This document shows, in pieces, positions 29,132 to 43,557 of a stretch of 50,494 nucleotides of DNA. Under the pieces are notes generated by a model, which was not told the DNA's origin, searched no databases, and saw only the letters and a program-made list of their open reading frames with translations. The stretch comes from a virus. Positions within the stretch are counted from its first letter, which is position 1; each line of letters opens with the position of its first letter. A program made the position numbers and the translations under genes. The stretch lies in the IMG/VR virus record IMGVR_UViG_2788500486_000002; one strand, 5' to 3'.

Positions 29132-29156
29132 GTGAGCAATGAGGGCATGACCGTGA

Positions 29157-29168: not shown

Positions 29169-29215
29169 GTCCCTGTGCCGTGCCCTCTTTTCTCATTAGT
29201 AGTGGAGCATGTATC

Positions 29216-29389
29216 ATGCTTGAATATTGGTTCGATGAACACAACGGCCAATGGGTCGTGGCACACAAGCAAACAGGAGCCTTTGTCTCCGCTCACAACT
29301 ATGAATGGCAAGTCAAGGCACAATACGGCCAAGACATCTATCATAACGTCTTTTGTTGCGATCATTTTGAATTTGTGGAGGCCGCGTAG
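29216..29389 (+). CDS. Hypothetical protein (57 aa; MLEYWFDEHNGQWVVAHK...)
   Basis: In-frame ATG inside ORF 29132..29389, with GGAG 9 nt upstream. Confidence 0.45.
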   Translation: MLEYWFDEHNGQWVVAHKQTGAFVSAHNYEWQVKAQYGQDIYHNVFCCDHFEFVEAA

Positions 29390-29394
29390 CTACT

Positions 29395-29508
29395 ATGGCA
29401 ATATTTATATTCTTTGCAGGAATGTTTATCGGCGTCCCTGTTGTGGTGCTGTCTATTCTGGACAGCGCCTATCGTTTTGTTCAAGCATGGAAAGGAAACG
29501 ACCTATGA
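29395..29508 (+). CDS. Possible 37-aa membrane peptide (MAIFIFFAGMFIGVPVVVLSILDSAYRFVQAWKGNDL)
   Basis: Hydrophobic helix. The stop overlaps the next ATG (ATGA at 29505..29508). Confidence 0.35.
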   Translation: MAIFIFFAGMFIGVPVVVLSILDSAYRFVQAWKGNDL

Positions 29509-29660
29509 AATTCACGTTCAAAGGCCGCACGGTGGCCACTATTCCGCACCGGAGTATTCGCTCCAAAGGTGAGACGGAACGCATGAGCGAGGATGCAAAG
29601 GCACTATTGCTCCGCCCTCACACCTTTCGCAATCATTCGGGACTGTTCAGCCATGGGTAA
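29505..29660 (+). CDS. Possible small protein (51 aa; MKFTFKGRTVATIPHRS...)
   Basis: ATGA coupling to the preceding peptide. AAGGAAA lies 6 nt upstream. Confidence 0.35.
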   Translation: MKFTFKGRTVATIPHRSIRSKGETERMSEDAKALLLRPHTFRNHSGLFSHG

Positions 29661-29859
29661 AGCTTATCTAGGCGGGCGAAAGACCGGCGGCTATAGTCTT
29701 CGGGAAAGCCTTACAAGTCAAGGGGTTACAAGCGAAGGGGCTATTCGTGAGCACCTTTCCTTTGTCCACAATACTTTGACAGCCAATCCAACAATGGATA
29801 TAACGCGGTACAGGGTAAGCCCTAACTTTCCCAACGCCGCCCCAACAATGATGGGATAA
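29653..29859 (+). CDS. Possible small protein (68 aa; MGKAYLGGRKTGGYSL...)
   Basis: The ATG overlaps the previous stop (ATGGGTAA). In frame with ORF 29593..29859. Confidence 0.35.
   Translation: MGKAYLGGRKTGGYSLRESLTSQGVTSEGAIREHLSFVHNTLTANPTMDITRYRVSPNFPNAAPTMMG
29776..29804 (+). promoter_or_regulatory. Near-consensus sigma70-like promoter candidate
   Basis: TTGACA (29776..29781) - 17 nt - TATAAC (29799..29804), about 190 nt upstream of gene 29994. Confidence 0.35.
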
Positions 29860-29889
29860 CGACAGCATAGCGATTAGGGGCTGGTGGTA

Positions 29890-29901
29890 TAATCTATCAT
29901 C
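29890..29901 (+). repeat. TAATCTATCATC motif copy 4 (overlaps TGGTATAAT)
   Basis: Exact 12-mer. Here it is fused to TGGTATAAT (29885..29893), the same extended -10 used by the consensus promoters. Confidence 0.9.
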
Positions 29902-29993
29902 GGCCCTTTTCCCCTGCGCTGAGTATGTGTGGGAGCCCTTGAGTTTAGGATTAGCAAGGGTTTGTCTAATACCTAGAAAAAGGATTTAATATC

Positions 29994-30584
29994 ATGGAAT
30001 TGCGTGAAATCAATGCCCGTATCCGTGGCATCCGTACCCGTCGTGAAGGCACCCGCGTTGCTATTCAGGAATGTGCTGTTGGCATCGTCGAACATGCTAA
30101 CGAACACGGCGATTGTTCTGCTGCTCACCGTCTTTGCCGCGCTATGGAGCCGAAGCTTCGCTCGCAAGTGGTCAAGTGGTTCACTGAAATTAGCCCTATC
30201 AACGTCAAGATGGGCAAGACCGCTGCTGACGACAAGGCCAACCTCCGCAAGCCGGAACAAAACGGCTACAACGCCTTCAACATTGACCGTGCCCGTGTTC
30301 TGAAGTGGTACGAGCTGGAAACGCCGGAAAGTGCGCCTAAGGTGTACGATCTTACGTCTTTCCGTGAGGACGTACAAAAGGTGCTTGGCCGCTACGCCAA
30401 GATGCTCGAAGGCGACAACGCCAAGATCACTGGTGCGGCTGCTGATGCTATCCGTGCTGACCTTGCAGCTTTCCACGAGGCTATTGCATCCAACGGCCAG
30501 CGTGAACAAACACCGAACCGCGTTAACGATACTAACCCTGTCGTCGACGCTCCGCTCGCAGCACCTATCGCTGTAGCGGCTTAA
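29994..30584 (+). CDS. Hypothetical protein (196 aa)
   Basis: AAGGA SD 10 nt upstream. Helical, Ala-rich C-terminus. No family recognised. Confidence 0.65.
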   Translation: MELREINARIRGIRTRREGTRVAIQECAVGIVEHANEHGDCSAAHRLCRAMEPKLRSQVVKWFTEISPINVKMGKTAADDKANLRKPEQNGYNAFNIDRARVLKWYELETPESAPKVYDLTSFREDVQKVLGRYAKMLEGDNAKITGAAADAIRADLAAFHEAIASNGQREQTPNRVNDTNPVVDAPLAAPIAVAA

Positions 30585-30696
30585 CAGTCCCTAGTCTATA
30601 GGGCCGACCTTGGGCACCGTCGCAAAACTGCCCCCTCTTTTATAATGAGATACGGGACTAATAAGGTCTGTGACGCCTAAAAGTATCACAGTAATT

Positions 30697-30730
30697 GCAG
30701 GTATTTTAATCGGTTGCCTGCCCCTTTTTC
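30697..30730 (+). terminator. Terminator-like hairpin
   Basis: GCAGGTA (30697..30703) pairs with TTGCCTGC (30714..30721), followed by CCCTTTTTC. Confidence 0.45.
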
Positions 30731-30783
30731 AGGTGTTCGCGCGGGCTTTATCCGTGTCTCTTTCTAACAGTGATAATGAAAGG

Positions 30784-30795
30784 TAATCTATCATC
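30784..30795 (+). repeat. TAATCTATCATC motif copy 5
   Basis: Exact 12-mer in the 18-mer GAAAGGTAATCTATCATC. ATG 30796 follows immediately. Confidence 0.9.
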
Positions 30796-31173
30796 ATGTC
30801 TGATACCAAACCTCTCAACCTCGACGAACCCGTCATGCTTTCCGACGGACGTTCCGCTCGTATTATCTGTACGGATAGGGTGTCTGATATGGGGCGAACA
30901 GTGGTGGCCTTGGTGACTCAGGTAGACCACGAAGCAGCTCTGTATTTCAAGGCTGACGGAACGAGCCTAGGTAGGCTCACTCTCGTGAACGTGCCTCCGC
31001 CGAACCGGTTCTTTAACCTGTACAACAGCACTGCTAGTGACATCTGTGGACACAAATCTCTTGAAAGAGCCCAAGACATAGGTAAGGACACTCCGTACAG
31101 TTGGAAAGGCACTCTCGAAGAAACCCCCGACGGAGCGTTCGTAGCGTTCCACCCGAAGCCACAGCCGGAGTAA
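30796..31173 (+). CDS. Hypothetical protein (125 aa)
   Basis: ORF bounded by motif copies 5 and 6. Confidence 0.6.
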   Translation: MSDTKPLNLDEPVMLSDGRSARIICTDRVSDMGRTVVALVTQVDHEAALYFKADGTSLGRLTLVNVPPPNRFFNLYNSTASDICGHKSLERAQDIGKDTPYSWKGTLEETPDGAFVAFHPKPQPE

Positions 31174-31182
31174 TCTATCATG
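31171..31182 (+). repeat. TAATCTATCATG motif copy 6
   Basis: The TAA is the stop of 30796..31173. The terminal ATG (31180) is the start of the next gene. Confidence 0.9.
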
Positions 31183-31809
31183 TCTGTTCTTGCTGTATTT
31201 ATGTGGGTCATCGGACTGCTGGTGGCCTACGTCCTTGTAGCAAAGCTTACCTACGCTGCCCTTGACGGTTTAGGGTTTTGTCAAACCTGCGATGATGAAA
31301 CACAGTCTATTATGGCGAGTGTGTTTTGGCCTGTCGGCATTCCCGTCATCGTTTCTTTGCAATTGCTGAAAGGTATCGGACACCTCTTGACACCTACTAA
31401 GTGGTTGAAATTGTTCAGCAAATTGAGAGGCAAAAGGGACGACGAGATTATCCCCGGCGTGACTAAGCCTTCGATCATTGCTGCTGACATGCTCGTGGCC
31501 CAGATGATCCAAAACCCCCGTGAGGTCAAAAACCTCTCCTTTTCCACTTCTAAGGTTTCTCTTAGGTGGAGAGACGGGTTGTATCCCTCGTATCAGGTTC
31601 GGAATTTTATCCTCTCTGTTCCCGGTAAAACTGAAATACGCTTCGAGGGTGAAGCTGAGCAACGCCTTATCAAAGGTTTGAAGAAAGCCAAGACCCTCCG
31701 TGACGAGATGCTCAAGGCTGACGAGCTTGCCAAGCGTGAGCAAGAAGCCCTCGACGTAATCGAAGCCCTTACAATTGGCAATACCTCTAACGAACAGGAA
31801 AAGGACTAA
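31180..31809 (+). CDS. Membrane protein (209 aa), two N-terminal TM segments
   Basis: MSVLAVFMWVIGLLVAYVLVAKL and SIMASVFWPVGIPVIVSLQLL, followed by a soluble domain. Confidence 0.6.
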   Translation: MSVLAVFMWVIGLLVAYVLVAKLTYAALDGLGFCQTCDDETQSIMASVFWPVGIPVIVSLQLLKGIGHLLTPTKWLKLFSKLRGKRDDEIIPGVTKPSIIAADMLVAQMIQNPREVKNLSFSTSKVSLRWRDGLYPSYQVRNFILSVPGKTEIRFEGEAEQRLIKGLKKAKTLRDEMLKADELAKREQEALDVIEALTIGNTSNEQEKD

Positions 31810-31814
31810 CTGAC

Positions 31815-32693
31815 ATGCAATATAGACGACACGGCGCTGATTGTTGCGGCGCAGGACACATTTCTGGTTTCGACAACGCTACTCCTGACGACCTTGACCG
31901 GTGCATCGGGGAGCACGAACGATCGTGGGCCGGTACTAACCGAATGATCGAGGTTATCCTCTCCGAACGCCAGATCACTACGGGCCGTATGCCTGCTGGT
32001 CGTACTGGCCAAGACTTCGCTAATCGCATTACGCAAGCTACTCGTGATGCTGGCGGCTGGGCGCAAGTGCTTTCGGAGCGAGGCTTCAAGTTCGTTCGCC
32101 GGTTCCGCAACAGCAACAGCGGCCAGAATTGCTACGTGTTTCACCGCATCCCTGAGGAACTGTCCCTTACGGATAACCTTCCGTTCAACTGGCCGGGTGA
32201 AGCACCGAACGGCGGTCGTGCGGGTGTTGTTGAGGCTCCGGCTCGTAACCCCGTTAACAATGAGCGAGCAAACTTCCTGAGCCTTGGTCACGGAGGCACA
32301 GCAATTAACGCCCGTGTACAATACTTTAACCCTCGCGGCGCTCGTCACGGGCAAACGGGAGTTGTAGTAGATCGTCACGGACATGTCGGTGAACTGGAAG
32401 TTCGGTTCAATGCTGATGGAGCACGTGAACGGTACTCTGTTACGTCTTTCCGTCCTGCTCCGCCTCCGGTTGGTGGCGGTCGTGGTGAACCTCAGCCCGC
32501 CCCTGTTCCCCCAGCTCCGGTTATTATGGCTACTGAATGGTTCGCTGTGTTCGGTGACGGTCGTGAACGTGGGGTGTTCCGTACTCAAGCTGAGCTTCGG
32601 GAAGCGTATCCTCGTGTGCGTCGTTGTCGCCAACGCCAGATTTGGAACAACGGTACTTTCAACTTCCTCCCGATACAAAATATCGAAAGGTAA
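31815..32693 (+). CDS. Hypothetical protein (292 aa) with Pro/Gly-rich linker; first gene of the ligase cassette block
   Basis: ATG with AAGGA upstream. The stop TAA begins motif copy 7. An antisense 290-aa shadow ORF was rejected. Confidence 0.6.
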   Translation: MQYRRHGADCCGAGHISGFDNATPDDLDRCIGEHERSWAGTNRMIEVILSERQITTGRMPAGRTGQDFANRITQATRDAGGWAQVLSERGFKFVRRFRNSNSGQNCYVFHRIPEELSLTDNLPFNWPGEAPNGGRAGVVEAPARNPVNNERANFLSLGHGGTAINARVQYFNPRGARHGQTGVVVDRHGHVGELEVRFNADGARERYSVTSFRPAPPPVGGGRGEPQPAPVPPAPVIMATEWFAVFGDGRERGVFRTQAELREAYPRVRRCRQRQIWNNGTFNFLPIQNIER

Positions 32694-32702
32694 TCTATCA
32701 TC
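32691..32702 (+). repeat. TAATCTATCATC motif copy 7
   Basis: Exact 12-mer in the same 18-mer GAAAGGTAATCTATCATC as copy 5, but followed by ACT rather than ATG. Confidence 0.9.
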
Positions 32703-33083
32703 ACTAATGCTCGCATAGCAGTCTATGGTACGCTTCGCAGGGGAGGCCCGGCTAACGGGTTTCTCCTCGGAGCCAAATACCTAGGCCAAGACAAAATCAA
32801 AGGCACGATCTACAACCTTGGGGCTTTTCCGGGTCTTGTTCTCGACGACGGTGGTGAGGTTATTGTAGACCTCTATGAATTGCCCGCCGACGACAACGGC
32901 TCTATGCTGCAAGAGGTTGACATTTACGAGGGTTATTATCCCACGGATAAAAGTCGTTGTCTTTACCATCGCCGTAACGTCACAACTCTTGAAGGTTGCC
33001 TTGAGGTCATGGCTTACGAATATGCCCACGAGGTTGACAACAAGTGGGTCGTTAAATCGGGTGACTGGTTCAACCCAAGCTAA
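32694..33083 (+). CDS. AIG2 / gamma-glutamyl cyclotransferase-like protein; no canonical start codon upstream of the conserved N-terminus
   Basis: The open frame after TAA 32691 reads SIITNARIAVYGTLRRGGPANG...IYEGYYP...VMAYEY (YGTL motif of the GGCT fold). The first ATG/GTG/TTG in frame is TTG 32880, well inside the domain. Confidence 0.6.
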   Translation, partial: SIITNARIAVYGTLRRGGPANGFLLGAKYLGQDKIKGTIYNLGAFPGLVLDDGGEVIVDLYELPADDNGSMLQEVDIYEGYYPTDKSRCLYHRRNVTTLEGCLEVMAYEYAHEVDNKWVVKSGDWFNPS

Positions 33084-33100
33084 ACTCGGAGATACATACA

Positions 33101-34042
33101 ATGGTTCATCGTTTCGCGGATATGGTTTTTAAGCCTGACTGCTCGGAAAAGTCCCTTGAGGTAGCTCGGGGCATCTGGAAAAACTCTAGCCCAAGCAACT
33201 ACATCAGTTTCGCTTGTGGTTCAGGCGACCCCCATCCCGAAGGCGGAGAAAGCTTTAACAAGTACGCTCGTGCAGCTTGCCACGGGCACGTAGCTGGTTG
33301 GGGCTCTGCCCACAGAAAGCGTTACGATTGGGTAACGTCTCGGCTGTCGGTTTATACTGACGCTGACCGTAAACACCTGAACAAGATTTGGGAGTTTGTT
33401 GGAAGTAAAGATTGCCCGCTTAGTCGGTTCATTCTTAACGCTGACACGATGGTGACGGACCGTGCCCTTGTTGCGTCGACGGATGCTCCACGACACATTC
33501 TTCACCTTCTTAACCTTATCTCTCGCCGAGGTTCGGAACACGCCTACGGCCAGCACCACTACGCTGAGATTGAGCCGTTCCTTGATAACAAGATGGTCGC
33601 TCTTTGGTTCGCCCTTCACCTTGGTTCCAATTTCTCTGACAAGCAAGTCGTAGTGTTCTCTGGCGCGGTACACGGTGGAGTGTTCTACAACGTAGGTGTT
33701 GACTCGCTCAAGACTTTCGCCGTTGACCACGGTGTTGTAACCTACGACACCGCTACGTTCCGTGAGAACCGCAATTACACTGGCACTTCTAGCATGATGG
33801 GCCAGAACCGTGGTCAAGCCAGTGCGTACAACGTTATCGCTGATCTTCTCAAAGAACCCGATATTGCTGCTCAGCTTGCCGAGTATCGCTCTAAGCGCGA
33901 CGGCAAAGTCGAGGTTGCAGTGCCTAATCCGTTCAAGCCTCAGCCTGCTACTTCTGGCAAGCCTCTTGCGGGTCAACTCACTGGCGAGGAGTTCAAGAAT
34001 TTCCTTTGTCCAATCCTTAACGAAAGGTTCCCAACACCGTGA
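33101..34042 (+). CDS. Hypothetical protein (313 aa), cassette member
   Basis: GGAGA SD 8 nt upstream. 4-nt overlap (GTGA) with the next gene. No family recognised. Confidence 0.65.
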   Translation: MVHRFADMVFKPDCSEKSLEVARGIWKNSSPSNYISFACGSGDPHPEGGESFNKYARAACHGHVAGWGSAHRKRYDWVTSRLSVYTDADRKHLNKIWEFVGSKDCPLSRFILNADTMVTDRALVASTDAPRHILHLLNLISRRGSEHAYGQHHYAEIEPFLDNKMVALWFALHLGSNFSDKQVVVFSGAVHGGVFYNVGVDSLKTFAVDHGVVTYDTATFRENRNYTGTSSMMGQNRGQASAYNVIADLLKEPDIAAQLAEYRSKRDGKVEVAVPNPFKPQPATSGKPLAGQLTGEEFKNFLCPILNERFPTP

Positions 34043-34827
34043 CCGATGAGACGATTGAAAACTACACTGACAAGGTTTGCCCGGACTTCACCGGCAAGAA
34101 AGCCTTTATCGCCAACGGCGCTATGCGTGGCATGGTTGCTGCTATGTTCGCTGCTTGCGGGTTCACTCGTGCCGACACTGTGGAAGACGCTGATATTATT
34201 GTCTTTACTGGTGGCTCTGACGTGTCTCCTGCGTTGTACGGACAGACAGCTATCTCTGGCACGTATTTTAACCGTGACCGTGACAACCTTGAAGTTGAAA
34301 TCTTTACAAGGGCAAAGGAACTCGGTAAGCCGATGTTCGGTATTTGTCGGGGTATGCAATTCCTTCACGTCATGGCTGGCGGTGCTCTTTGGCAAGACGT
34401 TACCGGACACGCTGGGCCCGATCACTTCATGGTGGACATTGAAGAGGGCGTTCGCCTCAAGGTTACGTCTCTGCATCACCAGATGGTGCAAGTGTCTGAC
34501 AAGATCAACATGCAGCTTATCGGCGTGTGTGAGGATACAATCACCAAGAAGTTTGAGGATGAAAACATTCTCATGCACACTGGTGCTTTGAGCAACAATG
34601 CTCGGGAGTCGACTGCTACTCTTGAAACCGAGGCAGCTTTTTACCCTGACATTAACGCTCTTGCGGTGCAAGGACACCCTGAGTGTGGTTCCGACGAATA
34701 CAAGTCGTGGACTATGAACAAGATTAAGGATCGCTTCTTCGACGAGGCCGACCCTGAAGATTACGAACTTGAATACGAAGTTATTACTGTAAACGCTGAA
34801 GGAGATAGCAAGTGTGCGGAATCGTAG
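34039..34827 (+). CDS. Class I glutamine amidotransferase / peptidase C26 (gamma-glutamyl hydrolase-like)
   Basis: KPMFGICRGMQFLHV (nucleophile-elbow Cys) and AVQGHPE (catalytic His/Glu). Confidence 0.75.
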   Translation: MTDETIENYTDKVCPDFTGKKAFIANGAMRGMVAAMFAACGFTRADTVEDADIIVFTGGSDVSPALYGQTAISGTYFNRDRDNLEVEIFTRAKELGKPMFGICRGMQFLHVMAGGALWQDVTGHAGPDHFMVDIEEGVRLKVTSLHHQMVQVSDKINMQLIGVCEDTITKKFEDENILMHTGALSNNARESTATLETEAAFYPDINALAVQGHPECGSDEYKSWTMNKIKDRFFDEADPEDYELEYEVITVNAEGDSKCAES

Positions 34828-36245
34828 GAATAGCAGGCAAGATCGCCCAAAAAGAACGCAAGATATTCGACAATCTGTTGACTGTCTGCCAGCTACGGGG
34901 CCGCGACTCGACCGGCGTTGTTTCTGTTACGCGTGGCAAAGAGGCCAAGTACATCAAGCAAGTCGGAACGCCTGAGACACTGATCGACCGTAAGCAATAC
35001 GAATCTATCATCGGCTATACTCCGGCTATCCTCATTGGCCATTGCCGCCACACGACTAGCGGTTCAACCAACTACTCTAACGCTCATCCGTTCGACTTCG
35101 ATGAAACTATCGGTGTTCACAACGGTACGTTGGCTCACTCGTGGAACCGTGGCGAGAACGCCAAGGACTACACTGTCGACTCCGAGTGGTTGTACAGTCG
35201 TATTGATGAAGTCGGTATCGAGGATGCTCTCAATGACATTGACAAGACTGGTGCTTGGGCTCTTGCCTTTTACCGCAAGGACACAAACACTCTCAACTTT
35301 ATCCGCAACAGCAAGCGCCCGTTGTATTTCGCTTGGTCAAAGGATAAGGACACGATGTTCTGGGCTTCTGAGCCTTGGATGCTTTGTGTTGTTGATCGTG
35401 ACATTGACATGGCTGTTCTTAATGAAGAGACCGGTGCATGGTACATGCCTCTTCCTGAGAATACTCTCTGGGAAATTGAAGTCGACGCGACCACTAATAA
35501 CAAGTCCAAGATTTTCAACATGAAGCCCCCGAGGGAGATTGAAGGTGGTGCAAATTTTACCTTTCTGGCACCTCCGAAAAAGGTGACACCTCCGACCGGC
35601 CATGGCTCAACTGGTTCTGCTAACAAAGGAGGGAGCGGCGTCATCCACCCTTTTCAAAGAACCGGGGCCGTAGACAGTACGGAGGAAGAACTAGCCACGC
35701 TTCTCGGGTTGCCAGCCCCGACTACCTCAACAAAAGGTTCGGACGCCAAAGCGGACGAGAGTACGAGTTCGACGAAATCCGAAGGGAAATCACAGACGAG
35801 TTCGCAGCGGAGTTCGGGTTCCACGACGGGATCGAAAAGTACAAGCTCTTCTCGGAAAGGTACTCTCTCCCTTCCGGGTCTCAGTTCACCGTCTTCACCT
35901 ACAACCAGCAAAAGAAAGCCCTCAAGCGGCTCAAGCGAGCAAAGCGACTCCTCGACGCGGGAAAGCTCCCCGAATTTAACGCTGGTGCACAGTCAACCCT
36001 CGACATGGAGGGGAGTTAGACGAAGCTCCGACGAAAACGCGAAGAACGTCTCGCTCCGCAATGTTGCTGGGACTTGGTACATCTCTAGCTTGCAAACTTC
36101 TATGGAAATAAGCGAGAAAGTATTCGAAGAAAATACCAATGGCGTGTGTGCGTTTTGTAAGACGCCTATTGGTGGTCTTGAAGAAGTCCACACTCTACTT
36201 AGTCGTAACGCTTTTATTTGTACTGATTGCGGCTCTGGTAGCTAA
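34812..36245 (+). CDS. Class II (Ntn) glutamine amidotransferase fused to a Ser/Thr-rich segment and a C-terminal zinc ribbon
   Basis: GTG start giving MCGIVGIAG (N-terminal nucleophile Cys). The C-terminus CAFCKTPIGGLEEVHTLLSRNAFICTDCG is ClpX-type zinc-ribbon-like. The 35.6-36.0 kb segment is frame-ambiguous (see findings). Confidence 0.7.
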   Translation: MCGIVGIAGKIAQKERKIFDNLLTVCQLRGRDSTGVVSVTRGKEAKYIKQVGTPETLIDRKQYESIIGYTPAILIGHCRHTTSGSTNYSNAHPFDFDETIGVHNGTLAHSWNRGENAKDYTVDSEWLYSRIDEVGIEDALNDIDKTGAWALAFYRKDTNTLNFIRNSKRPLYFAWSKDKDTMFWASEPWMLCVVDRDIDMAVLNEETGAWYMPLPENTLWEIEVDATTNNKSKIFNMKPPREIEGGANFTFLAPPKKVTPPTGHGSTGSANKGGSGVIHPFQRTGAVDSTEEELATLLGLPAPTTSTKGSDAKADESTSSTKSEGKSQTSSQRSSGSTTGSKSTSSSRKGTLSLPGLSSPSSPTTSKRKPSSGSSEQSDSSTRESSPNLTLVHSQPSTWRGVRRSSDENAKNVSLRNVAGTWYISSLQTSMEISEKVFEENTNGVCAFCKTPIGGLEEVHTLLSRNAFICTDCGSGS

Positions 36246-36275
36246 CACTTACTTGAAACGAAAGGATTGAATGTA

Positions 36276-37163
36276 ATGAATACTTCATTTACCCTCGGGT
36301 GCGATCCCGAAATCTTCGTCAAGAACAAGCGTTCCCAGAAGATCGTCTCGGCTCACGGCCTTATCGAAGGCGACAAGAAAGCCCCTCACAAAATTCCTGA
36401 AGGGGCCTATCAAGTTGACGGCATGGCTGTCGAGTTCAACACCGACCCGTATGATCTATCACGTGGTTCGTCTGCTGTGTTCTCTCGTCGTGTCCTCAAC
36501 GTCATGGACCAGATGAAAGCTTCGGTTCAGGCAAAGGACAAGGACCTTACGTTTGCTATCCAAGCAACAGCGGACTTCGATCCTGAGTATCTTGAAGCAC
36601 AGCCTGAGGAAGCCAAGGAACTTGGGTGTGACCCGGACTTCAACGCTTACACTCTTGAGCAGAACCCCCGTCCTAACGGTGAGGTTCCGTTCCGTACTGC
36701 TGCTGGCCACATTCACCTTGGCTGGACTGAAGGCGCTCCTATCGACCACCCCGATCACCTTGCCATTTGCGCGAGTATCGTCAAGTGTCTCGATGCTACG
36801 GTTGGCTTTGCTTCGGTTATCTACGAGCGTGACACCCGTCGCCGTGAAATGTACGGTTGTGCTGGTGCGTTTCGTCCGAAGCCTTACGGAGTTGAATATC
36901 GTACCCCGTCTAACTTCTGGATCGCCAACCACAACCATCGTCAGTCGATGTTCCTTACCGTTAAGCAGACTGTCAGCACTCTTCGTAGTTGCGGCGGCGA
37001 CGAGGTTCGGGCCATTGGGAATTTGAGCGGTTTAACCCCTGAAGAAGTTCGCACAGCTATCGACAACAACAATGTTGAAGCAATTCGTGAGCGATGCTTT
37101 GGTCTTCGTGGCCCTTGGTACGATGACTTCCTTAACGAAAGGTTCGCTAATGTTCTGGACTGA
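36276..37163 (+). CDS. phiEco32-type COOH-NH2 ligase (GCS/glutamine-synthetase-like fold)
   Basis: ATG 36276 with AAAGGA 9 nt upstream. Motifs LGCDPEIF, YQVDGMAVEFNTDP, RTAAGHIHLG and GVEYRTPSNFW fit the family as I recall it. Confidence 0.65.
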   Translation: MNTSFTLGCDPEIFVKNKRSQKIVSAHGLIEGDKKAPHKIPEGAYQVDGMAVEFNTDPYDLSRGSSAVFSRRVLNVMDQMKASVQAKDKDLTFAIQATADFDPEYLEAQPEEAKELGCDPDFNAYTLEQNPRPNGEVPFRTAAGHIHLGWTEGAPIDHPDHLAICASIVKCLDATVGFASVIYERDTRRREMYGCAGAFRPKPYGVEYRTPSNFWIANHNHRQSMFLTVKQTVSTLRSCGGDEVRAIGNLSGLTPEEVRTAIDNNNVEAIRERCFGLRGPWYDDFLNERFANVLD

Positions 37164-37809
37164 TTTCGAACAAGCCCAACAGCGGCTACGTGGTACGATT
37201 GTCATGTACGACGGTTCTCCGTTTTACATCGAGAACGTGCGTGTTTCTGAGGACGATCCTGAGGAGTTCGTAGCTCACGGTGGTATGGTCAATGACCGAG
37301 GTGTTTACGAGCGCCATGACGTTAACCTTGAAGACGAAGGGTGGAACGACTTTCGCAATCTTCCGGCGCTTGGTTACGTCAACACTCCAACGCACCTGTA
37401 CCACATCGCTCGGCTTCCCGCTCGAACGGTCAAGCACGGCCACGGAGGGGAGAACACTCGTCTGTCCTATGTCCAACCCAACGGAGCTCTTGGACGAACG
37501 GATACTTCGGTAACAAACTTTGCCACGTCTGTTAAGAACGGTAAGTGGTACAAGCTGGCTTGCCAGAAGGTTTTCCCTTCGTTCAAGGATGCCCTCGACA
37601 ACCTCGACCTTCACCCGCAAATGACGATTGCGTTTAGTCCTCGTCACTACATTGTCCGTGACAAGTCTTCGGGTGTTACCTCGATGTTCCGTGACCAGCG
37701 TCAGATTGGTATTATCCTCGAAGATGCTGTTCTTTTGACACGAAAGAACGCTTGCTATCGCGAAGAACTCGCTGATAAGTATGAAATCCCCAACATTATG
37801 GAGGCCTGA
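37150..37809 (+). CDS. Hypothetical protein (219 aa), cassette member
   Basis: ATG 37150 overlaps the upstream gene end by 14 nt. In frame with ORF 37072..37809. Confidence 0.55.
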   Translation: MFWTDFEQAQQRLRGTIVMYDGSPFYIENVRVSEDDPEEFVAHGGMVNDRGVYERHDVNLEDEGWNDFRNLPALGYVNTPTHLYHIARLPARTVKHGHGGENTRLSYVQPNGALGRTDTSVTNFATSVKNGKWYKLACQKVFPSFKDALDNLDLHPQMTIAFSPRHYIVRDKSSGVTSMFRDQRQIGIILEDAVLLTRKNACYREELADKYEIPNIMEA

Positions 37810-37817
37810 CTGTTACT

Positions 37818-38993
37818 ATGACTGACAAGAATGATTTCCTCAAGGCTCTTGGCGGCAAGTCCAGCGCAAAGAAAGCCGTCAAGCGCGAGTTCCCTCTTCC
37901 CATGAGTCCTTCCAAGCCGTTGGCTGCTAAGTCGGCTGTCGGTGATGTTGGTATTGAGATTGAGGTCGAGGGCCGTAATCTACCCCGCGGTATGGCTGTA
38001 GTCGACAAGTCTATTTGTCCCACCACTTCCTCTGTGTGGGTTACTCACGACGACGGCTCGCTTCGCGGCGAGAGTGCTGAGTTTGTGCTTGACCCTCCGG
38101 CTGTGATCGACGAGGTTCCCAACGCTCTTGAGTTCCTTTGGGGCAAGTTCAATCGCGACGGTACTCGTATCGACGCATCCAACCGCACGTCTACACACGT
38201 ACACGTCAACGTCCAAGGCATGAAGATCAACGAGTTTTGCTCGTTTATTGTGCTTTGGCTGTGCTTTGAGAGTGCTCTTATCAACGTGTGTGGACCAGCC
38301 CGTAAGAGCAATCACTTCTGTCTCAGCAATCGTGACACTGGCGGCTGGCTTGTCGATCAAGTCGAGAAAGCTCTCGTGACCGGCTCCTTTGCGTGGCAGC
38401 AAGGTATGAAGTATGGGGCTCTTAACCTAGCAGCGTTCACCAAGTTCGGTTCGCTTGAGTTCCGCCCTATGCGTACCATGGAAAGTGTCCAGCAGCTTGT
38501 CGATTGGACTCGTATTCTTGTGGGTCTTCGTGAGGCTGCCAAGGGTCAGATGTTCAAGGACCCGTCGCTTATCCCTGCTCGGTTCTCCGAGAACGGCGCT
38601 GACTATCTGTTCCGTACTATTTGCGACGATGCTGGTGTGTCTCGTGAGTTTGTCGACGAAGTGTTCAGCCATTACGACGACGTGATCTCGTTCAACCAAG
38701 ATGTTATCGACGGTCTTCGCGATGCCCAAGGCATTTGCTACGCTCTCGACTGGACTGACTGGATGGACAAGTTCGAAGAGGTTTACATTGAGAACCCCTT
38801 TGGCTCGACCAAGCCTAAACCTGCTCCTCGGGCTCCTCGCCCACTGTTCTTTAACGAGAACCCTGCCCCCGATAACAACAGGGACCGTGCTGCTGAAAAC
38901 TTTGGGCGTATCGAACGGGAACGTCAACGCCAGCGTGAAGCAGGCCGTCAAGCAGCTCAAATTATTGCCGATGACTTCAACGACGACTTTTAA
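37818..38993 (+). CDS. Amidoligase_2-like putative amidoligase (GCS-type carboxylate-amine ligase)
   Basis: Motifs VGIEIEVEG, HDDGSLRGESAEFVL, TSTHVHVNV and GSLEFRPM, in the order typical of that family. Confidence 0.7.
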   Translation: MTDKNDFLKALGGKSSAKKAVKREFPLPMSPSKPLAAKSAVGDVGIEIEVEGRNLPRGMAVVDKSICPTTSSVWVTHDDGSLRGESAEFVLDPPAVIDEVPNALEFLWGKFNRDGTRIDASNRTSTHVHVNVQGMKINEFCSFIVLWLCFESALINVCGPARKSNHFCLSNRDTGGWLVDQVEKALVTGSFAWQQGMKYGALNLAAFTKFGSLEFRPMRTMESVQQLVDWTRILVGLREAAKGQMFKDPSLIPARFSENGADYLFRTICDDAGVSREFVDEVFSHYDDVISFNQDVIDGLRDAQGICYALDWTDWMDKFEEVYIENPFGSTKPKPAPRAPRPLFFNENPAPDNNRDRAAENFGRIERERQRQREAGRQAAQIIADDFNDDF

Positions 38994-39014
38994 TACAAAG
39001 CAAGGAAAATATTT

Positions 39015-39776
39015 ATGAGATACAGAGTTTTGCCCTATCGAGGTGGCTCAAGAGGGGCCACCGCCCTTGCTCGTAGCCTTAACGGCATGTGCCTTCGTCT
39101 TAACGGCAGTCGGTTCCGCCCTCGCCGTAACGATGTTGTAATCAATTGGGGCAACACCAACAACCCTGATCTGGTACGGCTTTGCACTCACAATGCAATC
39201 GACCTTCGTGACGCAACCAACAAGCTCAACTTCTTTGAGCGTATGAGAGGTTCTGGTCTTGAAAACATCATCCCGCGTTTCTGGACTCGCCCGGAAGATA
39301 TTCCTGACGACGCCTTTCCCATCGTCTGCCGTACCGTCTTGGCGGGACATTCTGGTGAGGGCATTGTTATCGCTGATACTCGTGCTGACCTTGTGCGGGC
39401 TCCTCTTTATGTTGCTTATGTAAAGAAAGAGCAAGAGTGGCGCATCCACGTAGGCCGTCGCGCTGATGATGAAGGAATTATTATCGCCAAGCAGCGTAAG
39501 GCTCGCTCTAGGGACGTTCCTGATGATGAAGTTAACTGGCAGGTACGCAACCACCAGAACGGCTTCATTTACGCACGGAACGACGGCGTAGAGGCTCCTG
39601 AGCGTGTAGTTGACGCTGCTCGTCAGGCTTTGCTTGCAACTGACCTCGACTTTGGCGCAATCGACGTGATCTATCATAGTCGCACCCGCCTTGCCCACGT
39701 CCTTGAAATCAACACCGCACCGGGTCTCGAAGGTGAGACTGTCAACGACTACGTGCGTTTCTTTACGGGAGCCTAA
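39015..39776 (+). CDS. ATP-grasp ligase (RimK / R2K-like)
   Basis: NKLNFF, AGHSGEGIVI, YVKKEQEWRIHV, NHQNGF and AHVLEINTAPGL follow the ATP-grasp motif order. Confidence 0.7.
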   Translation: MRYRVLPYRGGSRGATALARSLNGMCLRLNGSRFRPRRNDVVINWGNTNNPDLVRLCTHNAIDLRDATNKLNFFERMRGSGLENIIPRFWTRPEDIPDDAFPIVCRTVLAGHSGEGIVIADTRADLVRAPLYVAYVKKEQEWRIHVGRRADDEGIIIAKQRKARSRDVPDDEVNWQVRNHQNGFIYARNDGVEAPERVVDAARQALLATDLDFGAIDVIYHSRTRLAHVLEINTAPGLEGETVNDYVRFFTGA

Positions 39777-39837
39777 TTATGACACGTGATGAACAACACC
39801 TAGCCGACCTATACCACGAACACAAGCACGGAGGACG

Positions 39838-40020
39838 TTGACAGTGTACCGATACAAGTTCACCTTTGCAGGCCACGCTTCTGGCTGGTCTCAAGATCAG
39901 TACGCCACTCGTGACGATGCGTTCATAGCGGGCACTGCCAAGGTCTTGGAAGACCCTAACCTTATCCGAAACGTACACTCTATCGTTGTCTCGGTTCCAA
40001 CGGTTGACAACCGAGTCTAA
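39838..40020 (+). CDS. Hypothetical protein (60 aa)
   Basis: TTG start with GGAGGA just upstream (GTG 39844 is an alternative). Confidence 0.4.
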   Translation: MTVYRYKFTFAGHASGWSQDQYATRDDAFIAGTAKVLEDPNLIRNVHSIVVSVPTVDNRV

Positions 40021-40052
40021 GCTTGCTATAATACTATAAAGAGAATATTAAC

Positions 40053-40628
40053 ATGAGTAAGACATGGGTCTACAGTGACCCTCACTTTTACCACCGTAAC
40101 ATTTGCAAGTTCACTAAAGAAGATGGCTCCCCTCTGCGTCCTTGGGATTGTGCCGAAGAGATGACTGAGCAGATGATTGAGTGGTACAACGAGCTAGTAG
40201 ACGACAAAGATAAGGTCTACATCCTTGGTGACGTTGCTTTCAGTAATCGTAACATGCACGAGAGCGTCGGCCGATTGAAAGGCCGTAAGGTTCTGGTCCC
40301 CGGCAACCACGAACCAGTGAAGATGCGCAAGTACTTCGATCTGTTTGATGATGTACGAGGTTACGTTGTTAAAAAAGGTTTTATTATGAGCCACATTCCC
40401 ATTCACGAGGGCTCGTTGTCTCGGTGGGAGCTGAACATTCATGGCCACCTTCACGCTAATGTTGTAACGAAGCCTTATGTCAATGGGTCAGACACCCCTA
40501 AAGACGAGAGCTATGATCCGTTGAATGAGACGATTGCAGACACTCGTTACTACTGTGCTTGTGTTGAGCACACTGATTTCCGTCCGAAGCTTCTGGACGA
40601 TATCCTAAAAGAAAGAGGACTAAGATAA
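40053..40628 (+). CDS. Calcineurin-like metallophosphoesterase (191 aa)
   Basis: Motifs SDPHFYHRN, LGDVAF, PGNHE and IHGHLH, in canonical order. Confidence 0.75.
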   Translation: MSKTWVYSDPHFYHRNICKFTKEDGSPLRPWDCAEEMTEQMIEWYNELVDDKDKVYILGDVAFSNRNMHESVGRLKGRKVLVPGNHEPVKMRKYFDLFDDVRGYVVKKGFIMSHIPIHEGSLSRWELNIHGHLHANVVTKPYVNGSDTPKDESYDPLNETIADTRYYCACVEHTDFRPKLLDDILKERGLR

Positions 40629-40629
40629 C

Positions 40630-40851
40630 ATGCGCTGTGCTATTTGCGACGCGACTCTCAACCCTTCGGAGATCGCTTACAACCACGACCACGACGAGTT
40701 TGAACCTTGCGGCACTTGCCTAGAGGCTATCGCCAACGTGTTCGAGGACCATCTGGACGAGGATGAAGTTCGTGTAATCGTCGAGCGAGACGAGCGGGAA
40801 ATGTTCGGGGACACTGAGGAAGATAATTATGATGAAGAATACGATGAATAA
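40630..40851 (+). CDS. Small acidic zinc-ribbon protein (73 aa)
   Basis: CAICD...CGTC pairs followed by a Glu/Asp-rich tail. Confidence 0.55.
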   Translation: MRCAICDATLNPSEIAYNHDHDEFEPCGTCLEAIANVFEDHLDEDEVRVIVERDEREMFGDTEEDNYDEEYDE

Positions 40852-40986
40852 TTACAGGCCCCGAAGTTCGAATCTTCGCAGAGGTCCTTGTAAAAAATCA
40901 ACCTCGGAAGCCTTTGATAATCTTGTACAAAATCGTCCAGTTAAGAATCCTTGTGGATTTTTCGTGCCAGATGTTAAAAATAGTTC

Positions 40987-41015
40987 TTGACAAAACCCTT
41001 AAATCTTGGTATAAT
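40987..41015 (+). promoter_or_regulatory. Consensus sigma70-type promoter with extended -10 (P2, replication block)
   Basis: TTGACA (40987..40992) - 17 nt - TGGTATAAT (41007..41015). The 36 nt at 41007..41042 are identical to 27022..27057. Confidence 0.8.
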
Positions 41016-41053
41016 TACTTGTAAGGTACGAGGGTAGTAATAGGTAAAGGTAT

Positions 41054-41908
41054 ATGGCTTTAAGTAAACTTACACTAGATGAATTTATTAACACCTATAC
41101 AAGAGAACACAACCTTAGGGAAGTGCCTAAAGATAGAATGTTCAATCTTGTTCGTCAGGCAGGCAATCTTTTGTCTCAGCAACGAGAAAAGAACCCTAGT
41201 CTCCCTCAGGCTTGTGTAGCAGGAGGGTTTCTCAGGGATACAATCCTTGGTACAATTCCAAAGGACTTTGACATCTTTGTCCTTAACTCCGGTGGTGATG
41301 ACTCGGCAGACAATGTACTCCGCTATCTTCCAGACCATTGTGAGTTCTGGGATCGTGGTGACAAACCAGAAGGTGAAGGTTCATCAGCTTTCTCGTCTTG
41401 CCCCGAAACTGGTGAGGCTCGTGAACCGTTTTATGTGGCTAACACCACTAACTTTTACAACTTTGACGACTTTGGTGAGAACGCTTACCACATTGGTACA
41501 CAAGTTATCGGACGCCCTCAAGCCACTATCGAAGACCTTCTGGCTGACTTTGATTATGGGCTTGTCCAGATCGCTTACGATCCAGCAGATGGCTCGATCA
41601 CTATGAACCGTGAAGTGTGGGACGATTTCCTCAAGACGGGCCGGTACGTCTTTCCAACGGAGCAAAGCTACACTAGAGCTTTGAGCTTCCGTCAGTGGGT
41701 GACAACTCCTGCGTATCCTCGTTTCAAAATGGTCCCCTACGGAAAAGTGATTGAAGTAGACCAAAAGCAATCCTTCAAAGGAACCTTTACGTACCTTGGC
41801 AACCCCAACGACGAAAAGAAGCCGAAGGTTAATCATCCTACCTCGTCTACCTCGCCTAGCATTTGGAAAACTGCCTCTTGGATGCCAATTAAGAAGGTTA
41901 ACTATTGA
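41054..41908 (+). CDS. Pol-beta superfamily nucleotidyltransferase (CCA-adding / poly(A) polymerase head-domain-like)
   Basis: VAGGFLRDTILGTIPKDFDIFV matches the GGxxRDxxLGxxxxDxD catalytic motif. A downstream LADFDYGLVQIAY is RDFTIN-like. Confidence 0.6.
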   Translation: MALSKLTLDEFINTYTREHNLREVPKDRMFNLVRQAGNLLSQQREKNPSLPQACVAGGFLRDTILGTIPKDFDIFVLNSGGDDSADNVLRYLPDHCEFWDRGDKPEGEGSSAFSSCPETGEAREPFYVANTTNFYNFDDFGENAYHIGTQVIGRPQATIEDLLADFDYGLVQIAYDPADGSITMNREVWDDFLKTGRYVFPTEQSYTRALSFRQWVTTPAYPRFKMVPYGKVIEVDQKQSFKGTFTYLGNPNDEKKPKVNHPTSSTSPSIWKTASWMPIKKVNY

Positions 41909-43557
41909 CTAATCCTAACACACTTACTCATCAACCCTGTCCTTGCGGCAAGTCTTCTGATGCTTGCACCTATTTCCTAGACACTAAGAACGCTAAGTGT
42001 CATTCTTGTGGGGAGAAACACCGAAACGTGGAACCACCAACTACCAATACTACTACCCAGCCTATCCCTCGGAGTGCCAGCTCTACTAAGTTCTCAGCCC
42101 CGTCTGGCGAGTACCGGGACTGGCCGGAGCGAGCACTGTCCCGCGACACTCTCAAAGCTTACCGTGTTACGCTAGGCGGAGAGGATGCAAAGTACGTCGC
42201 CAAGTACGCTCGCTTCGACACTGAGGGCAACCACGTCGGCAACAAGGTTCGCCTTAAGCATCAGATTGGACAACCAGAGAACAAAGGCTTCATCTACGAG
42301 GGCGAGTTCTCCAAGATGGCTCCGTTCGGTATGAATGCCTTTGAGAAAGGGTCTGCCAAGTACCTGACGATTGTCGAGGGTCAAGACGACGCCATGGCAG
42401 CGTATGAAATGATGGGGTCTAAGTATCCTGTTATCTCTGTCGACTCTGCTGCTACGGCTTCGGAAGAAATCAAGAGACATTTCGAGTGGGTCAATTCCTT
42501 TCCTACTGTTGTCCTTTGTTTCGACAATGATGATCCCGGACGAGCAGCAGCACGAGCTGTAGCGGGCCTTGGGTTCGAGCTTGGCAAAGTCAAGATAATG
42601 ACCCCCCGCAAGCACAAGGACGCCAACGACTACAAGAAAGCGCGTGACACTGAACAGTTCATGCGTGAGTGGTGGTCTGCTCCTACGTACAAGCCAGATG
42701 GGCTCAAGCTCGGCTCGGACATGTGGGAAGAGATCATTGACCGCAAGGAACACTTTACGGCACCGTATCCGTTCGAAGGACTTAACCGTCTAACCTACGG
42801 CTTGCGTCTGTCTGAAATGATCGTTGTTACTGCCGATACTGGTGTAGGTAAAACATCAATCCTTAAAACCATTGAGCACTCTTTGCTCACCAATCCCGAC
42901 GTAGTGGAGAAAAACTATGGAGTTGGTTTCCTTCATCTCGAAGAACCCAATGGAGATACTGCTCTGGGCTTACTTAGTATTCACAACAGTGTTCCTTATC
43001 ATATCCCCGGAGTGGATAGGCCCAAGGATGACCTCCGACGAGCTTACGAAGAGCTTCTTGACAATAATCGTGTGGTCATTTGGGACCATTTCGGAAGCAA
43101 TTCTGTGGACGCAGTTGTTGCTAAGATACGACACATGGCAGCTTTGGGTTGTAAATATATCGTGCTTGACCACCTTAGTATTGTTGTATCTGATCAAGCC
43201 GGAGACGAAAGAAAGCAGTTAGATGAAATTGCAACCAAAATTAAAACGCTGGCAATGGAGCTGGACTTGTGCGTTATTGCCGTTATCCATACTAATCGAC
43301 AAGGACAGATACGAGGAACAGCAGGCGTGGAGCAGCTTGCCAACATCGTCATGCGCCTTGAACGTAACAAAACGGACCCTAACGAATGGCGTAGGAATGT
43401 CACTAAAGTTACGGTGGAGAAAAACAGGTTCACCGGTTACACAGGTCCTGCTTGTTACCTTTGGTATAATCGCGAAACAGGCAGATTGACTGAGCTAGAC
43501 CAAGAACAAATGGATTTATTCGATGGCGGAGGAGCCCTCAATGACGAACCCTTCTAA
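41905..43557 (+). CDS. Bifunctional primase-helicase (T7 gp4-like)
   Basis: N-terminal Cys4 zinc finger (CPCG...CHSCG), TOPRIM (IVEGQDDAMA, FDNDDPGRAAA), and Walker A TADTGVGKTS and Walker B IVLDHLS of a DnaB-like helicase. Confidence 0.85.
   Translation: MTNPNTLTHQPCPCGKSSDACTYFLDTKNAKCHSCGEKHRNVEPPTTNTTTQPIPRSASSTKFSAPSGEYRDWPERALSRDTLKAYRVTLGGEDAKYVAKYARFDTEGNHVGNKVRLKHQIGQPENKGFIYEGEFSKMAPFGMNAFEKGSAKYLTIVEGQDDAMAAYEMMGSKYPVISVDSAATASEEIKRHFEWVNSFPTVVLCFDNDDPGRAAARAVAGLGFELGKVKIMTPRKHKDANDYKKARDTEQFMREWWSAPTYKPDGLKLGSDMWEEIIDRKEHFTAPYPFEGLNRLTYGLRLSEMIVVTADTGVGKTSILKTIEHSLLTNPDVVEKNYGVGFLHLEEPNGDTALGLLSIHNSVPYHIPGVDRPKDDLRRAYEELLDNNRVVIWDHFGSNSVDAVVAKIRHMAALGCKYIVLDHLSIVVSDQAGDERKQLDEIATKIKTLAMELDLCVIAVIHTNRQGQIRGTAGVEQLANIVMRLERNKTDPNEWRRNVTKVTVEKNRFTGYTGPACYLWYNRETGRLTELDQEQMDLFDGGGALNDEPF

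Follow-up and report, generated by a model that had tools for sequence, protein, structure and literature searches.

An uncultured marine podophage carries a divergent copy of the conserved phage 'peptidoglycan modification cassette'

The DNA analysed here, hereafter the window, is a virus record of 50,494 nt (IMG/VR record IMGVR_UViG_2788500486_000002), and its region 31815-39776 is an uncultured marine podophage's copy of the conserved 'peptidoglycan modification cassette', an early/middle operon located just upstream of the primase-helicase and DNA polymerase genes. The cassette as such is already known and the present one is a new, divergent copy of it; what is added here is quantitative synteny, the placing of two phage-specific proteins (O7 and U) in its core, the near-exclusivity of a ligase family to phages and a start-codon anomaly in the GGCT gene. 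Regarding function, we favour, with a probability of about 55%, an early-expressed multi-step ATP-dependent system for amide-bond assembly and trimming on a small-molecule or cell-wall-precursor acceptor. The peptidoglycan stem-peptide precursor pool is the best single candidate for this acceptor, which we put forward tentatively, and DNA is a less likely one.

All genes of the region lie on the + strand and are tightly packed, with overlaps of 4 nt (34039/34042), 16 nt (34812/34827) and 14 nt (37150/37163) and gaps of 0-30 nt at the remaining junctions. A preliminary description of the window had listed nine genes with overlaps of 4-14 nt, a range that the 16-nt overlap exceeds. The nine genes are real, same-strand and packed, and eight of them are open reading frames (ORFs) at the coordinates it listed. 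Its estimate that the cassette takes up ~16% of the genome was also right (15.8% of the 50,395-bp unit). The genes are as follows.

31815..32693, + strand: ORF1, lineage-specific; N-terminal domain of ~115 aa, Pro-rich linker, C-terminal domain of ~55 aa
32697..33083, + strand: GGCT, a GGCT/AIG2-like gamma-glutamyl(amine) cyclotransferase with an uncertain start; Pfam GGACT 8.6e-16, PHROG 2520 7.6e-16
33101..34042, + strand: U, a divergent member of family U; 38 bits (1.1e-13) with the 56-member U profile, hhalign probability 98.4%, E 8e-15
34039..34827, + strand: GAT1, a class I glutamine amidotransferase of the Peptidase_C26 / gamma-glutamyl hydrolase type; triad Cys103-His213-Glu215
34812..36245, + strand: GAT2, an N-terminal nucleophile (Ntn, class II) glutamine amidotransferase; Ntn domain 1-195, linker ~240-405, C-terminal zinc ribbon
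36276..37163, + strand: CNL, a phiEco32-type COOH-NH2 ligase of the GCS/GS-like superfamily; alternative TTG start at 36267
37150..37809, + strand: O7, a phage-specific protein (~190-220 aa in its family) encoded between CNL and AMI; PHROG 11055 3.6e-12
37818..38993, + strand: AMI, an Amidoligase_2-type (GS-like) ligase; PHROG 7469 'amidoligase enzyme' 2e-56
39015..39776, + strand: GRASP, a short RimK-like ATP-grasp ligase, last gene of the unit; PHROG 2599 9e-67

In order to place this region among phages, relatives were sought at the nucleotide and protein levels. At the nucleotide level, megablast matched no phage either to the cassette or to 25 kb of the window, and the relatives were found at the protein level only, with identities to cultured phages of ~28-48%. 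A tblastn search with AMI matched 236 phage records, and annotated synteny upstream of the primase-helicase and DNA polymerase was seen in Pseudomonas phages GP100 and PA11, Salinivibrio phage CW02, Citrobacter phage CVT22, Erwinia phage Pecta, the oyster-associated KZY1, LUZ24 and Escherichia phage PJNS034. Searches with single proteins (O7), as well as a scan of IMG/VR with AMI, were nearly empty because word and pattern filters miss such divergent relatives, so that alignment queries were needed. A scan of IMG/VR with a COOH-NH2 ligase alignment retrieved 351 relatives, from which 80 loci were kept and annotated by hidden Markov models (HMMs) built from the families. The families are present in these 80 loci as follows: CNL, O7 and GAT2 in 79 each, AMI in 77, ATP-grasp in 74, GAT1 in 70 and GGCT in 19, where it stands at the same end of the cassette; U is found in 59, plus 2 with the variant seen in the window (O3), hence 61 of the 80. 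The order U-GAT1-GAT2-CNL-O7-AMI-GRASP-...-primase-polymerase is nearly invariant, and the cassette precedes the primase-helicase and polymerase in at least 67 loci. In particular, CNL, AMI, ATP-grasp and the Ntn amidotransferase are co-linear in the window (34812-39776), in 74-79 of the 80 loci and in LUZ24, PA11, CW02 and CVT22. The gene-neighbourhood conservation that the preliminary description proposed to check was therefore found, the same order recurring in 80/80 IMG/VR loci and in annotated phages of several genera, which places the arrangement far beyond chance.

The family assignments made earlier (AIG2/GGCT, C26, Ntn class II, COOH-NH2 ligase, Amidoligase_2-like and ATP-grasp) held in profile searches against Pfam and PHROGs. 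The expectation that each would be recovered by Pfam was borne out in part: GGACT, Peptidase_C26, GATase_6 and COOH-NH2_lig were significant, but the Amidoligase_2 match remained below the cut-off and no Pfam family matched the ATP-grasp protein; PHROGs match both. GAT1 is recognised by PF07722 (Peptidase_C26; 3.3e-24, 86 bits, cut-off 20.5) and by its PHROG (9.5e-37), and its triad C103/H213/E215 is kept in 85 of 86 sequences. The nearest NCBIfam models are PuuD (gamma-Glu-GABA hydrolase) and gamma-glutamyl-CDP-amidate hydrolase, both with scores far below the curated cut-offs. GAT2, which begins with MCGIVG, matches GATase_6 (5.5e-12, 46 bits, cut-off 27) and its PHROG (3e-60). Its Cys2, R79, N104-G105 and D123 are conserved, the last three in at least 91 of 95 sequences, and the four cysteines of its zinc ribbon (C446, C449, C470 and C473) are invariant in 7 phages. 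It has the linker and the zinc ribbon but no fused synthase domain, and a separate ligase could be its partner; by analogy with EgtC, a hydrolase-only role could also be envisaged, EgtC being a weak NCBIfam match far below the curated cut-off. The linker (~240-405; 35530-36025) is of low complexity and rich in S, T, G, P and K, with 39 Ser and 22 Thr in 166 residues. It stands in place of a middle domain of ~100 aa in the GAT2 of other phages, the Ntn domain and zinc ribbon being kept.

With respect to the ligases, CNL matches PF14395 (1e-10, 41.7 bits, cut-off 25) and PHROG 3815 (3e-71), and residues E12, E53, N55, R140, H145, H147, E207 and R209 are kept in at least 95 of 101 sequences. AMI scores 20.9 bits with PF12224 (3.6e-4), under the 22-bit cut-off, and its homologs in LUZ24 (gp18) and in the related loci L010 and L011 pass this model; E47, E49, E51, S81, E88, H127, H129, E214 and R216 are kept in at least 90 of 91 sequences. 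The window's copy of GRASP has no Pfam match and its relatives match PF08443 (RimK), the nearest PDB sequences being an alpha-L-glutamate ligase and RimK (E 0.02-0.12); R106, R143, D217, E231 and N233 are kept in at least 91 of 93 sequences. No informative domain fusion emerged from a search of long U, GAT2 and ATP-grasp variants. Since the catalytic and ligand-binding residues of all six enzymes are kept in at least 90% of ~90 homologs per family, these enzymes, with their catalytic residues intact, are predicted to be functional. Furthermore, as judged from sequence conservation, the six enzymes and the two phage-only proteins O7 and U are under purifying selection.

The preliminary description had left O7, U and ORF1 as three plain unknowns; O7 and U are in fact core members, conserved to the same degree as the enzymes, and not accessories. 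O7 is weakly similar to the gene found between CNL and AMI in all relatives and aligns with its positional equivalents in 6 phages. An exhaustive HMMER search gave 3,647 cluster representatives of its family, nearly all of them stand-alone proteins of 180-220 aa. The conserved positions are R12, G75, a loop R88-x-P-x-R92...G97, G187 and E205; the C-terminus is not conserved. The structure prediction suggested earlier was performed with AlphaFold2: a run with 8 sequences gave a predicted local distance difference test score (pLDDT) of 51 and was unusable, and the model used, from an alignment of 140 sequences, reached a pLDDT of 96 and a predicted template modelling score of 0.89, with small beta-barrel units and helices. 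No PDB structure was matched by this model in Foldseek at E<=1e-3, the best TM-scores being below 0.3; partial and insignificant fold matches (E>0.01, TM<0.3) were to HEX-1, eIF5A, EF-P and Tudor barrels, and the matches in BFVD were uncharacterised phage proteins only. The predicted O7 fold is thus confident and novel-looking. For the protein itself, the probable role is that of a scaffold, or of a substrate-recognition subunit, serving the two GS-like ligases encoded on either side of it. LUZ24 gp17 was considered as an O7 relative and is only weakly supported (E 0.002).

The U gene lies immediately upstream of GAT1 in most cassettes and is phage-specific, the homologs found being confined to phage records and to contigs no larger than a phage genome. 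The window's protein at 33101-34042, like the family, has no relative in Pfam or the PDB, and it was found through the U profile. The closest relatives, L015 and L018, carry an intermediate U form at the same position. In an alignment of 50 sequences C60, R142, E146 and H191 (window numbering) are invariant; with such a Cys/Arg/Glu/His set, U is probably a further enzyme. LUZ24 gp14 and gp15 were not supported as members of this family. For O7, U, ORF1, CNL and AMI together, fold and sequence searches against the PDB gave no significant match.

The COOH-NH2 ligase family is almost confined to phages. Indeed, a scan for CNL that covered 185,579 bacterial and archaeal species, each represented by a single genome, returned 23 loci only, nearly all on contigs of 46-51 kb from metagenome-assembled genomes (MAGs) which carry the cassette, primase and polymerase; given that these contigs are phage-sized and have both replication genes, nearly all of the loci are taken to be mis-binned phages. 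The single clearly chromosomal homolog, in a Bacteriovoracaceae MAG, stands alone beside genes for an alpha/beta hydrolase, a sugar-nucleotide epimerase and a tetratricopeptide-repeat glycosyltransferase of heptosyltransferase type. In the same MAG (L115 5836-8061) a neighbouring subtilase gene is split by an intein with a LAGLIDADG homing endonuclease.

The cassette has already been named and repeatedly described (PMC5498523, PMC11945000, PMC10580990) and is therefore not a novel observation. With reference to Hardies et al. 2013 and Iyer et al., Duhaime et al. (PMC5498523) describe a 'peptidoglycan modification cassette' of seven genes and name RIO-1, phiEco32, 7-11, PA11, tf, MR299-2, LUZ24, PaP3 and CW02 as carriers; PSA-HP1 is likewise reported to carry it, and the same phages and cassette are covered in PMC11945000 and PMC3890496. 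The precedent named in the preliminary description, an amidoligase survey from the Aravind group, is real: Iyer 2009 is cited together with Hardies 2013 in PMC11945000 and PMC10580990. The hypothesis repeated in these papers (PMC11945000, PMC10580990, PMC11706807) is that the cell wall is altered in order to prevent superinfection or prepare lysis. Regarding expression, the genes for the ATP-grasp, amidotransferase and AIG2/YtfP proteins belong to the sigma-70 early region of the phiEco32-like phage SU10, and mass spectrometry detected their products (PMC4281155). A bearing on fitness is indicated by the evolution of a P. aeruginosa phage, in which missense changes arose in the amidoligase and in the amidotransferase next to it in each of two independent lines (PMC11450229). 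The occurrence in archaeal viruses (PMC11706807) was considered as an argument against the cell-wall idea and is unusable as such, the host assignment there being uncertain.

Compared with the cassettes of RIO-1-like, LUZ24-like, PA11-like and phiEco32-like phages and of CW02, the window has the same families in the same order and place, namely C26, Ntn with zinc ribbon, COOH-NH2 ligase, the ~190-aa protein, Amidoligase_2, ATP-grasp and an optional AIG2/GGCT. It differs from these podophage cassettes by the addition of ORF1, a highly divergent U, the S/T-rich linker of GAT2 and a GGCT gene lacking a canonical start.

In the explanation that we favour, CNL (GCS-like), AMI (GS-like) and the RimK-like ATP-grasp ligase would each activate a carboxylate with ATP as an acyl-phosphate in the cytoplasm of the infected cell, and would then join it to an amine, which could be an amino acid such as glutamate, or ammonia. 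GAT1 and GAT2, which keep a glutamine/gamma-glutamyl site, would supply a ligase with ammonia taken from glutamine, so that a carboxamide is made from a carboxylate, or would instead cleave gamma-glutamyl amides by hydrolysis. GGCT, where present, would remove gamma-glutamyl groups as 5-oxoproline and release the amine, with U acting as an additional enzyme and O7 as scaffold or substrate-recognition subunit for CNL and AMI. Overall, a short amide-linked adduct would be built up and trimmed in steps on an acceptor that bears a carboxylate or an amine. The location of the unit between the perfect sigma-70 promoters at 27002 and 40004 was counted toward early expression.

Ligases and gamma-glutamyl-removing enzymes of these types are known to work in pairs: PuuA/PuuD (GS-like and C26), EgtA/EgtC (GCS and Ntn) and BtrJ/BtrG (ATP-grasp and GGCT). 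Each pair combines, by analogy, a ligase type and a remover type that are also present in the window; they differ from the cassette in that they are cellular, are not orthologs, have neither O7 nor U and act on known small-molecule substrates, so that the likeness is one of chemical logic only. The assembly and trimming of a gamma-glutamyl or peptide-like adduct, as first proposed for this window, is chemically reasonable, and what strengthens it here is analogy. As for peptidoglycan, the modifiers MurT/GatD (ligase and class I amidotransferase), AsnB/LtsA (class II) and Aslfm (ATP-grasp) are of the same enzyme types and likewise act as amidotransferases and ligases on stem-peptide carboxylates or amines; they are the basis of the published hypothesis, and this sharing of enzyme classes keeps it alive. 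However, MurT has a Mur-ligase fold, AsnB/LtsA has an asparagine-synthetase domain that is absent from GAT2 (Ntn and zinc ribbon only), and no sequence relationship between the cassette and these three systems was found beyond the superfamily level. The position of the chromosomal CNL homolog beside the epimerase and heptosyltransferase-type genes is a single weak hint at a cell-wall acceptor.

Several observations weigh against this explanation. The peptidoglycan idea is a 2009 comparative-genomics conjecture which later papers have repeated, and our full-text literature searches found no paper reporting a product of the cassette; no experimental work on product or target came up, in agreement with the statement of the preliminary description that neither has been established. 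CNL, O7 and U are essentially confined to phages, which argues against a universal host metabolite as target because cellular relatives might then be expected. Moreover, the cassette is always found in the replication module, and this constant setting, together with the phage-exclusive CNL, O7 and U, leaves room for a phage-specific macromolecular target. No evident membrane or envelope-targeting feature was seen in any cassette enzyme, the profiles of CNL and AMI found no homolog among the solved structures of the PDB, and the sequences of GAT1 and GAT2 would fit ammonia donors and gamma-glutamyl hydrolases alike. A different view has also to be considered, in which the cassette would not address the cell wall but would be a phage-specific macromolecule-modification machine, placing an amino-acid or amide adduct on phage DNA, independently of 5-hydroxymethyldeoxyuridine (5-hmdU), or, in the manner of pupylation, on a protein of the phage or host. 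The two GS-like ligases would be held by O7 and aided by U, and the amidotransferase-like enzymes and GGCT would serve maturation or removal. We regard this view as doubtful, though worth serious attention.

Taken by itself, the modification or tagging of proteins, in which the ligases would add glutamate, a peptide or an amide to a host protein or to the phage's own O7 and the amidotransferases and GGCT would act as deamidases or tag removers, appears unlikely. RimK glutamylates ribosomal protein S6, and the ATP-grasp enzyme of the cassette is nearest to RimK and alpha-L-glutamate ligases. In pupylation, the ligase PafA and the deamidase Dop, paralogous GS/GCS-like enzymes, act on the Glu/Gln gamma-carboxyl of a small protein encoded between them; CNL and AMI, which we take to belong to the same superfamily as PafA and Dop, flank the O7 gene in an arrangement recalling pup adjoining dop. 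O7 itself is beta-rich and non-enzyme-looking, is present in 79/80 cassettes between CNL and AMI and has an invariant basic loop. Its weak partial fold matches include eIF5A and EF-P, both of them post-translationally modified proteins, as well as HEX-1 and Tudor-type barrels, and GGACT-type enzymes act on epsilon-(gamma-glutamyl)-lysine. However, these fold matches are insignificant (E>0.01, TM<0.3), and O7 is three times larger than Pup, folded according to its model (pLDDT 96) and unconserved at its C-terminus, where it has no conserved Gly-Gly-Gln/Glu, unlike Pup or LysW; nor are there proteasome genes. No fusion or neighbour points to a target protein, and the LysW-like protein encoded at 40630-40851 has a variable C-terminal residue and occurs in 21/80 loci only.

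Hypermodification of nucleotides or DNA, that is a 5-hmdU-independent amino-acid or amide-type nucleobase adduct, made in the deoxynucleoside triphosphate pool or on replicated DNA and protecting against nucleases, is in our opinion improbable. It would agree with the position of the cassette directly upstream of the primase-helicase and DNA polymerase in each lineage examined and with the phage-exclusivity of the core families; in addition, the conserved zinc ribbon of GAT2 and, in the O7 model, the small beta-barrels with an Arg-rich loop could bind nucleic acid. According to Lee et al. (PMC8989533), thymidine-hypermodification genes in viral metagenomes can be found together with Pfam domains of amidoligases and amidotransferases, and those clusters are likewise multi-enzyme, lie in the replication module and in some cases include both domains. 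Their entry enzymes (dUMP hydroxymethylase or TET/JBP, 5-hmdU DNA kinase, aGPT-Pplase) were, however, not found: among the + strand non-structural proteins of the window scanned with Pfam and PHROGs there is no hydroxymethylase, 5-HMUDK-type kinase, aGPT-Pplase, DpdA or TET/JBP, which bears out the earlier remark that a thymidylate-synthase-like hydroxymethylase and a nucleobase kinase are lacking. Furthermore, the native DNA of the LUZ24-like phage tf, which has amidoligase and glutamine amidotransferase genes, was a substrate for HaeIII cleavage, for sealing with T4 ligase and for direct Sanger sequencing (PMC3517423), which argues against a bulky modification there, and no restriction resistance is reported for LUZ24, PaP3, PA11 or phiEco32 in the literature examined. 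Less probable still is a metabolic rewiring, in which host gamma-glutamyl compounds (glutamine, glutathione, gamma-glutamyl-polyamines, folylpolyglutamates) would be degraded and re-formed in order to channel nitrogen and glutamate into phage replication or to alter polyamine or cofactor pools. Three ATP-consuming ligases and two phage-specific proteins in a fixed order exceed the needs of salvage, and the ligase families have no housekeeping-type cellular counterparts. On the other hand, GAT1 is nearest to PuuD of putrescine catabolism, C26 is also the family of folate gamma-glutamyl hydrolase, and GGCT enzymes degrade gamma-glutamyl compounds. Nucleotide-metabolism genes are found in the same genomes (ribonucleotide reductase in the window, a MazG-like gene in the relative KZY1), and the cassette genes have been discussed as auxiliary metabolic genes or in terms of 'host material recycling' (PMC5498523, PMC10580990).

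The question matters beyond this genome. The cassette occupies ~16% of a 50-kb genome, keeps a near-fixed order across hundreds of podophages whose hosts are of marine, clinical and soil origin, therapeutic-candidate Pseudomonas phages included, is expressed early, mutates under directed evolution and was first noticed seventeen years ago. Identification of its product would settle the 'peptidoglycan modification' label, which has been copied from paper to paper without evidence, and would give functions to O7, U and two ligase families that have no solved structure. Were macromolecule modification to prove true, it would represent a new class of viral covalent modification in hundreds of podophages. 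The uncultured copy adds little alone, and the question is better attacked in LUZ24, PA11/TC6, CW02 or PSA-HP1.

Turning to the 5' end of the cassette, the GGCT gene, given by the preliminary description as 32694..33083, is not an ordinary ORF. An intact GGACT domain of 129 codons begins with the codon following the TAA of ORF1, in the same frame (32694), and matches positions 2-118 of the 120 of the model with 59 bits, AVYGTLRRGG and DIYEGYY being present; from there no ATG, GTG or TTG occurs until 32880, which is 62 codons in and well within the domain. A Shine-Dalgarno-like GAAAGG is found at 32685-32690, followed after 6 and 9 nt by candidate ATC starts at 32697 and 32700. An assembly error was rejected as the cause, the ORF1/GGCT junction being identical across four assemblies. 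The likeliest routes of expression would be an ATC start or termination-reinitiation, and readthrough of the TAA into an ORF1-GGCT fusion of ~47 kDa would be an alternative that is not the likeliest. A second GGCT homolog without a canonical start was found in the IMG/VR locus L058 (6690-6730), where GGGAGG is followed by a CTG at a distance of 8 nt. The GGCT gene of the window is missed or shortened by gene callers.

ORF1 has no match in Pfam, PHROG, NCBIfam or the PDB, and its N-terminal domain is characterised by the motifs HGGxCCGxxHI and FxNxNSGN. Homologs were found in 7/80 IMG/VR loci and on 2 MAG contigs, and some are stand-alone paralogs of ~120 aa. The family of the N-terminal domain (31815-32160; ~115 aa, with HGGxCCGxxHI and F(R/V)NxNSGN), for which no known family was matched, includes such stand-alone paralogs 3' of the ATP-grasp gene in related marine phages (L019 11556-11930, L024 13406-13762 and L094 14068-14436).

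The window as a whole represents a complete, circularly permuted phage genome. An exact terminal overlap of 99 nt (1-99 = 50396-50494) is an artefact of circular assembly and gives a unit length of 50,395 bp, which is likewise that of NCBI MK892802.1. Three further public assemblies (an ENA contig, NCBI MK892802.1 and a TARA Oceans scaffold) match the cassette region with 100% identity, and the exact ORF1 protein is present in 46 blocks of the assembly collection; on account of both, this uncultured marine phage is taken to be widespread. The genome layout is that of a Zobellviridae-type podophage, with the structural and terminase module on the minus strand and the early/replication module on the plus strand. 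The latter includes a class II ribonucleotide reductase, a metallophosphatase, a nucleotidyltransferase, the primase-helicase, a family A DNA polymerase, a Cas4-like exonuclease and endonucleases I and VII. As the cassette ends at 39776 and is followed by the primase-helicase (41905-43557) and the polymerase (43727-45571), it lies upstream of both, in the early/middle region.

The features that border the cassette are the following.

30796-31173, + strand: upstream ORF of 125 aa in the same tight array, 5-6 nt from the next gene
31180-31809, + strand: upstream ORF of 209 aa with a hydrophobic N-terminus, in the same array, likewise 5-6 nt from the next gene
40004..40032, + strand: sigma-70 promoter of perfect consensus (TTGACA, 17 nt, TG-TATAAT; 12/12 match)

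Within 27000-42500 there are three sigma-70 promoters that match the consensus perfectly (12/12) and have a TG extended -10 (27002-27030, 40004-40032 and 40987-41015), and they delimit early transcription units; a strong terminator-like hairpin is seen at 28226-28254. The promoter at 40004 starts the next unit, that of the metallophosphatase and the genes behind it, and sets the 3' limit of the cassette. The limits first given for the cassette are consequently right at the 3' end, this promoter standing just after the ATP-grasp gene, but the tight array already begins at 30796. The two upstream ORFs have no Pfam or PHROG function, and a homolog of 31180-31809 occurs in just 2/80 IMG/VR loci; they are outside the conserved cassette membership and may be co-transcribed with it.

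Beyond the 3' boundary, 40630-40851 encodes a protein of 73 aa whose N-terminus forms a zinc ribbon (MRCxICD...PCGxCL) and whose tail is strongly acidic; it is LysW-like in look, and its family sits between ATP-grasp and primase in 21/80 loci. It was rejected as a LysW-like carrier of the cassette, being absent from the cultured relatives, variable in its C-terminal residue and part of a separate promoter unit. Finally, the nucleotidyltransferase encoded at 41054-41908 had no match in our own Pfam scan and matched PHROGs as 'nucleotidyltransferase' only (4e-13); a public index lists it under Pfam PF26128 (Gad2, an anti-Gabija protein), and it may be an anti-defence gene.

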